Of a DNA stretch of 64,000 nucleotides, positions 7,305-48,153 are shown one piece after another. The notes beneath the pieces are model-generated. The model saw only the letters and a program-made list of their open reading frames with translations, was not told the origin of the DNA and searched no databases. Position 1 is the stretch's first letter. Every line of letters starts with the position of its first letter. Made by a program: the position numbers and the translations under genes. The DNA lies in the NCBI RefSeq assembly GCF_055900595.2, contig NZ_CM148325.1. One strand, 5' to 3'.

Positions 7305-8843
7305 ATGGCGAAAGAAAAAAAACGTGGCTTTTTTTCCTGGCTGGGCTTTGGTCAAAAAGAGCAGACCCCGGAAAAAGAGACAGAAGTCCAGAACGAACAA
7401 CCAGTTGTAGAAGAAATCGTTCAGGCGCAAGAGCCTGCGAAGGCTTCTGAACAAGCCGTTGAAGAGCAGCCGCAGGCGCATACTGAAGCCGAGGCGGAAA
7501 CTTTTGCTGCCGACGTTGTGGAAGTTACTGAACAGGTTGCTGAAAGTGAAAAAGCGCAGTCTGAAGTTGTTGCTGAACCGGAAGTTATTACTGAGCCGGA
7601 AACGATAGTTGAAGAAACGCCAGCGTCAGTCATTGAACCTGAAGTTACGCCAGAGCCTGTGGCTATCGAGCGTGAAGAGCTGCCGTTGCCGGAAGACGTC
7701 AAAGCCGAAGAGGTTTCGCCAGAAGAGTGGCAGGCCGAAGCGGAAACCGTAGAGATTGTCGAAGCGGCGGAAGAAGAAGCGGCTAAAGACGAAATCACCG
7801 ACGAAGAGCTGGAAGCACAGGCGCTGGCTGCCGAAGCGGCAGAAGAGGCGGTGATGGTGGTTCCTCCGGCAGAAGAAGAGCAGCCGGTGGAAGAAATCGC
7901 TCAGGAGCAGGAAAAACCGACCAAAGAAGGTTTCTTCGCGCGCCTGAAACGCAGTCTGTTAAAAACCAAAGAAAACCTCGGTTCCGGATTTATCAGCCTG
8001 TTCCGCGGTAAAAAAATCGACGATGATCTGTTTGAAGAATTGGAAGAGCAATTGCTCATCGCCGATGTGGGCGTGGAAACCACGCGTAAAATTATCACCA
8101 ATCTGACAGAAGGTGCGACCCGCAAGCAGCTTCGTGATGCCGAGGCGCTCTATGGCCTACTGAAAGAAGAGATGGGTGAGATTCTGGCGAAAGTCGATGA
8201 ACCGCTGAACGTTGAAGGTAAAACGCCGTTCGTGATCCTGATGGTGGGCGTCAACGGTGTGGGTAAAACCACGACGATCGGTAAGCTGGCGCGTCAGTTT
8301 GAGCAGCAGGGTAAATCAGTGATGCTGGCGGCGGGCGATACTTTCCGTGCAGCAGCGGTTGAACAGCTTCAGGTCTGGGGTCAGCGTAATAATATTCCGG
8401 TGATTGCCCAGCATACCGGTGCGGATTCCGCTTCTGTTATCTTCGACGCCATTCAGGCCGCTAAAGCGCGTAACATCGACGTTTTGATTGCCGATACCGC
8501 CGGACGCCTGCAGAACAAATCGCACTTGATGGAAGAGTTGAAGAAAATCGTCCGCGTGATGAAGAAACTCGACGTTGAAGCTCCGCATGAAGTTATGCTG
8601 ACTATCGACGCCAGTACCGGGCAGAATGCAGTAAGCCAGGCCAAACTGTTCCACGAAGCCGTTGGCTTAACCGGCATCACGCTAACGAAACTGGACGGCA
8701 CGGCGAAAGGCGGGGTAATTTTCTCGGTGGCTGACCAGTTTGGTATCCCTATCCGCTACATTGGTGTCGGCGAACGTATTGAGGATTTGCGTCCGTTTAA
8801 AGCGGACGACTTTATAGAGGCACTTTTTGCCCGAGAGGATTAA
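7305..8843 (+). CDS. ftsY: Signal recognition particle receptor FtsY
   Basis: 512 aa; acidic E/A-rich N-terminal domain then SRP-GTPase motifs (GVNGVGKTTT, DTAGR, TKLD). Confidence 0.97.
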   Translation: MAKEKKRGFFSWLGFGQKEQTPEKETEVQNEQPVVEEIVQAQEPAKASEQAVEEQPQAHTEAEAETFAADVVEVTEQVAESEKAQSEVVAEPEVITEPETIVEETPASVIEPEVTPEPVAIEREELPLPEDVKAEEVSPEEWQAEAETVEIVEAAEEEAAKDEITDEELEAQALAAEAAEEAVMVVPPAEEEQPVEEIAQEQEKPTKEGFFARLKRSLLKTKENLGSGFISLFRGKKIDDDLFEELEEQLLIADVGVETTRKIITNLTEGATRKQLRDAEALYGLLKEEMGEILAKVDEPLNVEGKTPFVILMVGVNGVGKTTTIGKLARQFEQQGKSVMLAAGDTFRAAAVEQLQVWGQRNNIPVIAQHTGADSASVIFDAIQAAKARNIDVLIADTAGRLQNKSHLMEELKKIVRVMKKLDVEAPHEVMLTIDASTGQNAVSQAKLFHEAVGLTGITLTKLDGTAKGGVIFSVADQFGIPIRYIGVGERIEDLRPFKADDFIEALFARED

Positions 8844-19000: not shown

Positions 19001-19747
19001 ATGCATTATGCCGTTGTCGTCATGCTTGAACTGCTTTGCTGTATTCACGCTTATCGCTCCGGACAAGAGCGATACTGGATTTTTATTATCTTCTGTTTTC
19101 CGGTGATTGGCTGCGTGGCGTATTTCGTCATGGTTATGCTGCCTGAAACGGGCGCTGACCGTCACGGGCGTACTTTGCTGATGCGCCTGCAGGACAAAAT
19201 CAGCCCGGAACGCCACCTGCACAAATTAACCGAAGAGCTGGCGATTGCCGAGACCAATCAAAACCATTATGCGTTAGCTAACGAACTGGCGCGCCTTGGG
19301 CGTTATCACGAAGCCGTTCCCCATTATCAGCAGGCGTTAAGCGGAATTTTCGCCCATGAAGCGGTAATGATGTTAAGCCTGGCGCAGGCGCAATTTGCTA
19401 TTCAGGAGTTCGCCGCCTGTCAGCAGATGCTGGAAGATGTGATGCGTTATAACCCCGATTTTCAGTCGGCAGACGGGCATTTGTTATTTGCCAGAGCGTT
19501 AGCCGCACAAGAAAAATACGCTGATGCGGAAAGCGAGTTTGAGGTGCTTGTTTCTTATTACCCCGGCCCGCAGGCACGTATTTACTATGCGGAAATGTTG
19601 GCGAAAATGAGTCGGTTACGTGAAGCCAACGAGCAGTATGTTGCTGTAGTTGATACGGCTAAACGCTCAAGACCTCATTATAGAAAACACCACCGGGAAT
19701 GGATTAAGACCGCCAATGAACGGCTGAAGCAGAGTGTGGTGCAATGA
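19001..19747 (+). CDS. Hypothetical protein: N-terminal PLDc_N-like two-helix membrane anchor plus TPR-like helical domain (248 aa)
   Basis: Long ORF with E. coli-like codon usage; N-terminus YWIFIIFCFPVIGCVAYFV resembles the N-terminal membrane motif of cardiolipin synthase; the rest is helical-repeat (TPR-like); SD-like GGAAAGG about 10 nt upstream; two hairpin terminators downstream. Confidence 0.7.
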   Translation: MHYAVVVMLELLCCIHAYRSGQERYWIFIIFCFPVIGCVAYFVMVMLPETGADRHGRTLLMRLQDKISPERHLHKLTEELAIAETNQNHYALANELARLGRYHEAVPHYQQALSGIFAHEAVMMLSLAQAQFAIQEFAACQQMLEDVMRYNPDFQSADGHLLFARALAAQEKYADAESEFEVLVSYYPGPQARIYYAEMLAKMSRLREANEQYVAVVDTAKRSRPHYRKHHREWIKTANERLKQSVVQ

Positions 19748-45015: not shown

Positions 45016-46533
45016 ATGGAAAGAATAATGCAAAACAGAAAATGGATTTTGACCTCGCTGATAATGACTTTTTTCGGCATCCCCATACTGACGCAATTTT
45101 TGGCAGCGGTTATTGCCATGCTGGGGGCCGGGCTTGCCGCTATTCTTGAGGTTTGCAATTTTCTCTTTACGCCAACAATTTATCTTCTACTCAACGTCTT
45201 TATGCTGACGCTGGGGGCGATAATTCTATTTTTCTCTGGTCGCGTGTGGGCCGGTGATAGCGCACCAGAAAACAGAGAAATAGCCGTCTGGCGGCAATGC
45301 TTTTTTCTTTTACCTGCACTGTTAACTCTGGTTGGCTGGATAATCACGCTACATCTGGCAGATTATCAATTTCGCCAAATGGGAGCAGGTTGGTTGGCAG
45401 AGCTTATGCTCCCCTGGCTGGGAGTTTTGTTAGTCTCATTAGTCGGAGGTGAGTTCTGGTGGATAGTCATTATACCCGTTGGTGCGCATATTAGTTTTTC
45501 GCTGGGGTATGGCTGGCCGACCAGATATCCTTTAACCGGCACGTACGGGTTACGTTGCCGTAATTCCCTCCTGTTTATCCTTCTTATGCTTGGTTTTATC
45601 GCTGGTTATCAGGCTTATTTATATAAACAGCTTAATCCCGGCGTCGGTGTGCGTGAAAATATTGATACCTGGGCCTGGCGACCCGATAAACTCAATAATC
45701 AACTGACGCCACTGCGTGGTAAACCGCAAATTCAGTTTACACAAAACTGGCTGCGACTCGATGGTGCTACGGCGGCGTACCCAATTTATGCTTCTGCCTT
45801 TTATGCGTTGAGCGTTATACCGGAAGATTTCCACACCTGGGAATATCTGGAGAACTCTCGTACCCCCGATGCATATAACAGGATTGTTAAAGGTGATGCC
45901 GATATTATTTTTGTGGCGCAACCTTCCGGTGGGCAGAAAAAACGCGCAGAGGAATCGGGCGTCACTTTGAACTACACTCCTTTCGCCCGTGAAGCATTCG
46001 TTTTCATCGTCAATGCGGATAACCCGGTTAATTCCCTGACTGACCAACAGGTGCGTGACATCTTCAGTGGCGCAATTACCAACTGGCGTACTGTTGGCGG
46101 TAACGATCAGGAGATCCAGACCTGGCAACGCCCGGAAGACTCTGGCAGCCAGACAGTGATGCAATCGCAGGTCATGAAAAATGTCCGCATGATCTCGCCG
46201 CAGGAAACCGAAGTGGCAAGCATGATGGAGGGAATGATTAAAGTTGTTGCCGAATACCGTAATACAAACAACTCAATAGGCTACACCTTCCGCTATTACG
46301 CAACACAAATGAACGCTGACAAGAATATCAAATTAGTAGCGATTAACGGTATTGCACCGACTGCGGAAAATATTCGTAACGGCAAATATCCGTATATCGT
46401 CGATGCCTTTATGGTAACGCGGGAAAATACTACGTCAGAAACACAAAAACTGGTCGAATGGTTTTTAACGCCGCAGGGGCAGAGTCTGGTGGAAGATGTG
46501 GGTTATGTACCGTTGCATACAACAATGAAATAA
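45016..46533 (+). CDS. Hypothetical fusion protein: N-terminal polytopic membrane domain (about 215 aa) plus C-terminal substrate-binding-like domain (PstS-like)
   Basis: 505-aa ORF (alternative start at Met5, 45028, with better SD); 6 or more hydrophobic helices; C-terminal domain about 60% identical to the next ORF (IIFVAQPSGGQKKRAEE..., WQRPEDSGSQTVM). Confidence 0.8.
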   Translation: MERIMQNRKWILTSLIMTFFGIPILTQFLAAVIAMLGAGLAAILEVCNFLFTPTIYLLLNVFMLTLGAIILFFSGRVWAGDSAPENREIAVWRQCFFLLPALLTLVGWIITLHLADYQFRQMGAGWLAELMLPWLGVLLVSLVGGEFWWIVIIPVGAHISFSLGYGWPTRYPLTGTYGLRCRNSLLFILLMLGFIAGYQAYLYKQLNPGVGVRENIDTWAWRPDKLNNQLTPLRGKPQIQFTQNWLRLDGATAAYPIYASAFYALSVIPEDFHTWEYLENSRTPDAYNRIVKGDADIIFVAQPSGGQKKRAEESGVTLNYTPFAREAFVFIVNADNPVNSLTDQQVRDIFSGAITNWRTVGGNDQEIQTWQRPEDSGSQTVMQSQVMKNVRMISPQETEVASMMEGMIKVVAEYRNTNNSIGYTFRYYATQMNADKNIKLVAINGIAPTAENIRNGKYPYIVDAFMVTRENTTSETQKLVEWFLTPQGQSLVEDVGYVPLHTTMK

Positions 46534-46558
46534 CTTTTGAGAGAACGGAATCAGCGCG

Positions 46559-47551
46559 ATGAATAAATTCATAGGCGTTTTACTGCTAGGTGCGGTTTTA
46601 CTGGCGGGATGTGTCGACCGGGAAGGGTACTATAACAGCGTCAGGGAAGAAGAGAGTCATGGACTGACGTCTCTGCGGGGGCAACCTGAATTACGTTACA
46701 ACGATGATTGGTCAAGATGGCCGAGAGTGTACGGCGCTACAGCCTTATACCCGCTGTATGCCTCCGCGTATTATGAATTAGTACCCGAGCCAAAAGATAA
46801 GGATCGAACCTCGCTGGCCTGGCAGGCGTATGGTTTGCAACAAACCCGAACAGCTGAAGCCTACGATAGTCTGATCAAGGGTACCGCGACGGTTATTTTT
46901 GTTGCACAACCGTCGGAAGGACAGAAAAAACGTGCAGAAGAAGCAGGCGTTAAACTGAAATATACCGCGTTTGCCCGCGAAGCCTTTGTCTTTATCGTTG
47001 ATATCAAAAACCCGGTTAATTCACTTAGCGAACAGCAGGTCAAAGACATTTTTAGCGGTAAAGTGAGTCGCTGGAATAAAGTGGGCGGCGGTGACGAAAG
47101 TATAAAAGTCTGGCAGCGGCCAGAAGATTCTGGAAGCCAAACGGTTATGAAGGGACTGGTTATGCAAGATACTCCAATGCTGCCAGCCAAAAAATCCACT
47201 GTTATCGATCTTATGGGCGGTTTAATTACCGAAGTCGCCGACTACAAAAATACACCATCTTCTATTGGATACACTTTCCACTATTACGTCACACGTATGA
47301 ATGACAATATGCTCAAAATGCGCAAACAGATCAAACTGCTGGCTATAAATGGCGTTGCACCTACAGAGGAAAATATCCGTAACGGCACTTATCCGTACAT
47401 GATTGATGCTTATATGGTGACGCACGAAACCCCTACGCTGGAAACGCAGAAATTCGTCGACTGGTTTTTAAGCCCGCAGGGACAGCAATTGGTAGAGGAT
47501 GTGGGGTATGTGCCGATTCATGACGCATCATACGAATCATCAGTGCAATAA
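46559..47551 (+). CDS. Hypothetical lipoprotein with substrate-binding-like domain (paralogue of the preceding C-terminal domain)
   Basis: 330 aa; signal peptide with lipobox LLAGC (Cys18); VIFVAQPSEGQKKRAEE and WQRPEDSGSQTVM motifs shared with the 505-aa ORF. Confidence 0.85.
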   Translation: MNKFIGVLLLGAVLLAGCVDREGYYNSVREEESHGLTSLRGQPELRYNDDWSRWPRVYGATALYPLYASAYYELVPEPKDKDRTSLAWQAYGLQQTRTAEAYDSLIKGTATVIFVAQPSEGQKKRAEEAGVKLKYTAFAREAFVFIVDIKNPVNSLSEQQVKDIFSGKVSRWNKVGGGDESIKVWQRPEDSGSQTVMKGLVMQDTPMLPAKKSTVIDLMGGLITEVADYKNTPSSIGYTFHYYVTRMNDNMLKMRKQIKLLAINGVAPTEENIRNGTYPYMIDAYMVTHETPTLETQKFVDWFLSPQGQQLVEDVGYVPIHDASYESSVQ

Positions 47552-48153
47552 TGATGAATAAAATCAGACTTTATATTCCTCCGTTAATTCTTGGTTTTGT
47601 TATTGTGCCGTTGTTGGTGTGGCCGACGGTGGTTGCGCTGGCTGCTTCTGTTATCACGCTGAGTTTTCTGGGAGAGATACTGTTCTCTATCCCGCTCATG
47701 ATCAGGCGTATTTCACTTCTGCAATTACAACTATGGTTATCGGCTGAATATGCGCTTTTCTGCTGTGCAATGGTGGGCGTTGGTTGGCAATTTGCTCGTA
47801 TAACTCAATCTGAATTGAAAAGCAGACTGCATTGTTGGCTGGTATTTGCACCAGTTTATTTCTGGTTGCTCCTGTGGAATATCATTTTCTATGTCGCGCC
47901 AGCGAATATTGCGTTGCTGGAGAATATGCGCAGTTTCTTTCTGACAGTTGTCTGGCTCCCACTAAATTTTTCGCCATTTTGGTCTCAACCGTGGATTGAC
48001 TTTGTCGGTCCAATAAGCGCACAGCTTGGTTTTGCGTTGGGATATTATTGCCAGTGGCGTAGCAAAAATAGAAGCCAGATACGGAAGTGGAGTGAGTGGG
48101 GAACGTGCCTGAGTTTTGTTACGTTGGGTATGATGGCGTGGGCTTTGCGGTAA
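47551..48153 (+). CDS. Hypothetical polytopic membrane protein (200 aa)
   Basis: Start overlaps the preceding stop (TAATG); 5-6 hydrophobic helices; loosely resembles the N-terminal domain of the 505-aa ORF. Confidence 0.7.
   Translation: MMNKIRLYIPPLILGFVIVPLLVWPTVVALAASVITLSFLGEILFSIPLMIRRISLLQLQLWLSAEYALFCCAMVGVGWQFARITQSELKSRLHCWLVFAPVYFWLLLWNIIFYVAPANIALLENMRSFFLTVVWLPLNFSPFWSQPWIDFVGPISAQLGFALGYYCQWRSKNRSQIRKWSEWGTCLSFVTLGMMAWALR

Follow-up and report, generated by a model that had tools for sequence, protein, structure and literature searches.

The ftsY locus of the E. coli DNA analysed here, a stretch of 64,000 nucleotides which we call the window, raises the question of why FtsY, the receptor for the signal recognition particle (SRP), should be longer in this strain than in K-12, and of which of the two lengths is the older. 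The identity of the gene is clear. ORF 7305–8843 is FtsY, its product matching the NCBIfam TIGR00064 ftsY equivalog (385.9 bits; cutoff 260.7) over residues 237–508 and profile positions 1–279 of 279, and matching solved E. coli FtsY chains end to end. As judged from the ORFs and from the annotation of K-12 and of a collinear strain, it is the first gene of the ftsYEX group and is followed by ftsE and ftsX; the divergent rsmD lies on one side and ftsE-ftsX-rpoH on the other, which is the standard E. coli order. Translation starts with MAKEKKRGFF, as it does in K-12, and the frame is intact throughout. The features of the gene are collected in Table 1.

Table 1. Position, strand and basis of features of the ftsY gene in the window.
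Feature	Position	Strand	Basis or remark
ftsY (SRP receptor FtsY), 512 aa plus stop	7305–8843	+	ORF listing; TIGR00064; identity to WP_103253583.1
A domain, residues 1–211 (K-12 1–196), acidic and of low complexity	7305–7937	+	Composition; NMR of the K-12 protein (PMC5094494)
Basic N-terminal lipid-binding segment MAKEKKRGFFSWLG, residues 1–14, same as K-12	7305–7346	+	Alignment; role from PMC5094494
125-aa antisense ORF within the A-domain coding region	7421–7798	-	Mechanical ORF list
12-nt segment (four codons), lacking in K-12/CFT073-type alleles	~7567–7578	+	DNA and codon alignments; placement uncertain by a few bases
30-nt (10-codon) segment TPASVIEPEV, absent from K-12/CFT073-type alleles	7617–7646	+	Alignments
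Direct repeat ACGCCAG (7 nt), second copy; the first is at 7617–7623	7647–7653	+	Bounds the 30-nt indel exactly
One-codon difference Q172, absent from K-12, present in common 498-aa alleles, e.g. CFT073	~7817–7820	+	Alignments
Amphipathic membrane-targeting helix at the A/N junction, residues 210–222 (K-12 195–207), same as K-12	7932–7970	+	Alignment; role from PMC2928010
N domain (SRP54_N helical bundle), residues 225–290	7977–8174	+	Pfam PF02881, 56.1 bits
G domain (SRP54-type GTPase), residues 308–508	8226–8828	+	Pfam PF00448, 268 bits

The GTPase motifs GVNGVGKT (residues 315–322), DTAGR (397–401) and TKLD (461–464) are present and invariant across the alignments. Based upon 99.4% identity to K-12 in the NG portion, this FtsY is predicted to form the GTP-dependent heterodimer with Ffh and to take part in targeting as the K-12 protein does. 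A Pfam search returned no family before residue 225. The A domain which occupies most of that region is 28% Glu, with 63 acidic against 13 basic residues. The antisense ORF that overlaps its coding sequence had no Pfam match and was rejected as a gene; GAA/GCN-rich sense codons, read as their reverse complement, would presumably yield just such a Ser/Ala/Thr-rich product.

A preliminary description of this DNA had given the product as 512 aa and the K-12 protein as about 497 aa. Both figures stand, the MG1655 gene (NC_000913.3, b3464) being 1494 nt in length, and pairwise alignment of the two proteins gave unequal lengths of 512 and 497 aa. The same description had placed the additional length, as most likely, in the E/A/P/V-rich repeats of the acidic N-terminal domain, which it regarded as prone to in-frame indels. 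Protein and DNA alignments agree with it on both counts: the 15-aa excess resolves into 4 + 10 + 1 residues, that is, three in-frame indels all of which fall within the A domain. The third of these, at Q172, is not a clean 3-nt deletion. In K-12 the change is from EAQA to ETA, and GAAGCACAGGCG against GAAACGGCG requires either two small deletions or one deletion and a substitution.

Outside these sites the two proteins are nearly the same. K-12 FtsY (NP_417921.1; PDB 2YHS and 5GAD, full-length sequence) is the product of the same gene in the same ftsYEX context and has an identical lipid-binding N-terminal segment and A/N helix; it differs in lacking the 4 + 10 + 1 central A-domain residues and in a handful of substitutions beside the indels. 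The first 85 residues match save for A45V. No change in length occurs 3' of the A/N junction. The NG portion has 309 residues in both proteins, with two substitutions (S272T and A307T, the K-12 residue being given first), and 43 of its 47 nucleotide differences lie in synonymous codons. The figure of 309 residues holds for all 11 Escherichia alleles that were compared.

The long gene is not peculiar to the window. The ftsY of E. coli Z0117EC0005 [NZ_CP098223.1, WP_103253583.1] is 1539 nt long, annotated as such, and 100% identical to the gene described here. Of 5426 complete E. coli genomes, 49 carry the segment which marks the long allele (7545–7665), in every case on the chromosome and within ftsY, and a search with the full gene returned a 1539-nt ftsY in all 49, including SMS-3-5 [WP_001040624.1]. 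The 512-aa FtsY of SMS-3-5 carries both of the extra segments at the positions they occupy in the window; its gene is 96.9% identical to the window allele at the nucleotide level, and the A domains differ by a few substitutions such as S86P and V88A. We take SMS-3-5 to be a phylogroup-F-type strain.

Low-complexity coding sequence may be prone to assembly errors, and one might ask whether the extra codons reflect such an error, a sequencing error, or a wrongly chosen start codon. We consider the chance of this practically negligible. The start and the first 85 residues agree with K-12 as described above, the frame is unbroken, and several complete, independent genomes contain the identical gene of 1539 nt. 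The identical annotated gene in Z0117EC0005 and the long architecture in 49 independent genomes together show that the difference in length is not an artefact of assembly or annotation. The 512-aa allele is therefore not new; it is a natural length variant which had been publicly annotated before. A literature search on ftsY length polymorphism and in-frame deletions found nothing relevant.

Among 40 genomes, sampled at even spacing down the match ranking, the gene was 1497 nt in 28, 1494 nt in ten, 1539 nt in one and 1377 nt in one. Most E. coli thus have the 498-aa state with the Q172 codon. The strains closest to the window are few. At least 99% identity at ftsY was found in 18 of the 5426 genomes and at glgA/C/P, 33 kb away, in the same 18, the next-best genomes standing at about 98%. 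The 9 kb around ftsY are 95.7% identical to K-12, so that it is the neighbourhood as a whole, and not ftsY alone, which has diverged from K-12 by about 4%. That the same 18 genomes alone reach 99% at both loci identifies the window as part of a small, rather divergent lineage of E. coli.

Over the whole 64 kb the window is collinear with Z0117EC0005 and differs from it by 14 SNPs and one 9-bp indel. The latter, at about position 2583, consists of CTGGCATTG, missing from the window, and is the sole length difference between the two; it sits in a small ORF (~2559–2867; "hypothetical protein" WP_250777490.1) between tusA and zntA. Annotation of the collinear strain also places a tetratricopeptide-repeat protein gene [WP_032303945.1] at ~19001–19747 in the ugpB-livF interval, and a hypothetical protein gene with two genes for PstS-family phosphate-binding proteins at ~45025–48153 between glpD and glgP. 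In K-12 the glpD-glgP interval presumably holds only the pseudogene remnant yzgL. The one Rfam family above threshold within the window was the RyhB sRNA (RF00057; 28043–28107, plus strand), at 83.1 bits (gathering score, 55).

Which of the two lengths is the older can be approached through other members of the genus. When the A domain alone served as query in a word-indexed protein search, the matches were mainly truncated or partial FtsY, with no full-length outgroups; among them were an incomplete sequence from E. albertii and A domains of Salmonella, Citrobacter and Klebsiella that align poorly. Outgroups were instead taken from a degenerate DNA pattern scan, based upon the invariant motif EIAQEQEKPTKEGFF, of species-representative genomes; E. 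fergusonii, E. marmotae and E. ruysiae were not among the genomes it recovered. Five sequences resulted: E. whittamii (FtsY of 512 aa), "E. coli" SCPM-O-B-8794, which is a separate and divergent species-level representative (512 aa), Escherichia sp. E1V33 (509 aa), E. albertii (504 aa) and Escherichia sp. MOD1-EC7003 (486 aa).

In codon alignments the 12-nt segment is present in all five of these Escherichia from outside E. coli proper. E. whittamii, E1V33 and SCPM-O-B-8794 have the 30-nt segment in full, its sequence having diverged; SMS-3-5 also has it. E. whittamii, E1V33 and E. albertii resemble the window in having long A domains with the 12-nt segment and differ from it by 6–9% at the nucleotide level in NG; they also have indels of their own, E1V33 lacking 3 aa and E. 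albertii having lost 24 nt from within the 30-nt unit. This last deletion is different from that of K-12. It leaves 6 of the 30 nt and is found in MOD1-EC7003 as well.

The deletion in E. albertii and MOD1-EC7003 is a curiosity in itself. The same 24 nt are missing from both, at ftsY codons ~103–113, together with a GAA-to-TCT change common to the two, and NG of E. albertii has diverged from the window by 8.5% and that of MOD1-EC7003 by 4.6%. The coincidence points to parallel slippage or to recombination between species at ftsY.

Since the outgroups keep segments that K-12 lacks, the window most likely represents the older long form and the K-12-type alleles are most likely deletion derivatives of it. 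On the evidence of these alignments the most economical reading would be that the 512-aa architecture is old in Escherichia and that the 497- and 498-aa alleles, which make up about 99% of E. coli, have been shortened. For the 30-nt unit the condition at the base of the genus can be assigned with less confidence, since most of the unit is missing from MOD1-EC7003 and from E. albertii, which is the most distant of the species included.

To call the window protein longer than that of K-12, as the preliminary description did in its heading, might suggest the opposite, namely that K-12 retains the original length and that the window lineage acquired the 12-nt and 30-nt segments through local duplication or insertion. 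This probably has the direction of change reversed. The 30-nt segment does resemble adjoining sequence (7610–7630 against 7640–7660, 76% over 21 nt), and such self-similarity makes an origin by tandem duplication possible. A perfect 24-nt tandem duplication in strain 1190 indicates that gains occur at the same spot, and the incomplete unit of E. albertii could be read the same way. Against this, diverged copies of the 30-nt segment lie at the same positions in three other members of the genus and the 12-nt segment in every outgroup sampled. A recent expansion in a single lineage fails on this evidence, and any duplication that gave rise to the 30-nt unit predates these species. We regard such an expansion as improbable.

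A second question is how the long state came to reside in the window lineage. If phylogroup F branches from within E. coli, simple vertical retention would need repeated deletions or the recombinational spread of one allele. One might suppose that an allele of the ancestral type reached the window lineage from another Escherichia lineage and not by unbroken vertical descent. Its patchy distribution would fit, the 49 genomes out of 5426 falling into at least two groups about 3% apart in ftsY (the 18-genome group of the window and the SMS-3-5-like strains), as would the mosaic divergence between the window and SMS-3-5, which is 2.0% in nt 1–255 of the A domain and 3.6% in NG. The deletion shared by E. 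albertii and MOD1-EC7003 also hints at exchange at ftsY. The divergence from K-12 of about 4% extends over the entire neighbourhood, however, and it is the same 18 genomes that are closest at ftsY and at glgA/C/P; there is thus nothing to indicate that a short tract around ftsY has been imported. We consider acquisition of the allele in this manner possible but unlikely.

The region in which the changes have occurred, ftsY codons ~86–115, is a hotspot for indels, and other Escherichia alleles specify proteins of 458, 486, 504, 506 and 509 aa. In the 506-aa allele (strain 1190, WP_001040616.1), carried by about 19 E. coli genomes, the 24-nt duplication results in PEAEVVAQ being present twice. 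The 458-aa allele (PSJ-07, WP_155555796.1) is intact and annotated as FtsY. Its 120-nt deletion lies further downstream, between CAGAAGAG repeats, and has removed EEWQ...AAEAA, including the region of the transient helix at K-12 residues 152–161. These two alleles and the 498-aa allele of CFT073 are like the window in that their in-frame indels are confined to the A domain with the NG core unchanged; the events in 1190 and PSJ-07 are different ones from those that distinguish the window. Additional small in-frame deletions are present in MOD1-EC7003 and E1V33.

Direct repeats of 7 and 8 nt lie at the ends of two of these deletions. Of the 374 possible distinct products of a 30-nt deletion in the A domain three have microhomology of at least 7 nt, the observed product with its ACGCCAG being one of them; for the 120-nt event none of the other possible products, out of 300, does as well as the observed one with its 8-nt microhomology CAGAAGAG. 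At the 12-nt event exact microhomology is absent, and there is just the imperfect repeat CTGAAGC/CTGAACC. Tandem Repeats Finder reported just two weak arrays, with a period of 18 at 7563–7601 and of 15 at 7761–7793, from which the region is repeat-like and not a clean tandem array. It would appear that coding sequence rich in GAA, CCG and GTT, specifying repetitive runs of E, P, V, A and T, supplies short imperfect direct repeats, and that replication slippage or short-homology recombination between them generates the in-frame indels.

What effect the additional residues have on the protein may be judged from work on K-12 FtsY. By NMR its residues 38–140 are highly dynamic and disordered and make no lipid contact, and the central acidic part of the A domain binds SecYEG in a transient, non-specific, electrostatic manner for which the role of a flexible tether was proposed (PMC5094494). 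FtsY-NG+1, in which the A domain is reduced to Phe196, complements FtsY depletion in vivo, and its targeting activity in vitro is 26% below that of full-length FtsY (PMC2928010). The extra residues of the window protein correspond to K-12 positions ~88–100, in the middle of the dynamic segment, and preserve its composition; for that reason no qualitative change in function is expected. In an AlphaFold2 model residues 84–138 are coil with a pLDDT of about 25–30, the model as a whole being poor (mean 45.7, from a shallow alignment of 17 sequences).

The long form has five additional acidic residues and its A domain a net charge of about -50 against -46 in K-12. A longer and more negative tether might tune the binding of FtsY to SecYEG, or its search radius, in the window lineage, and the electrostatic binding and proposed tether role of the A domain (PMC5094494) would allow for this. 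Three observations speak against such an adaptation. Among E. coli that are healthy and broadly sampled, FtsY proteins from 458 to 512 aa occur side by side, near-complete removal of the A domain has a modest effect (PMC2928010), and the indels bear the signature of slippage at short repeats. We think it highly improbable. There is equally little chance, in our estimation, that A-domain length is selected and tunable more generally, with the repeated loss, gain and possible exchange at codons ~86–115 reflecting selection and not neutral slippage. Were it so, the long tether of the window and of the SMS-3-5-like strains would alter the reach or the tightness with which SecYEG is sampled.

The reading that we prefer, with a probability of roughly 0.88, is that of an ordinary, already catalogued allele of the essential gene ftsY, with 15 extra residues in an A domain that is probably disordered. 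The 12-nt and 30-nt deletions would most likely have arisen in the ancestry of the common 497/498-aa alleles of E. coli, and the small group to which the window belongs, along with strains of the SMS-3-5 type, would have kept the long state seen in sister species. The segment affected appears to be a flexible tether that binds electrostatically and does not depend critically upon a particular sequence or length. With the lipid-binding N-terminus, the A/N helix and the NG GTPase core all unchanged, the functional consequence of the difference is probably negligible.

This is a well-studied protein, an annotated allele and a region tolerant of deletion, and the importance of the variant is limited accordingly. 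It does bear upon how the reference protein is viewed: K-12 FtsY, on which essentially all of the biochemistry has been done, probably has an A domain shortened from that of the Escherichia ancestor. The natural alleles, which run from 458 to 512 aa around an invariant NG core, amount to a ready-made deletion series, and one in keeping with the literature, in which the central A domain is seen as an electrostatic tether, non-specific and tolerant of changes in length.
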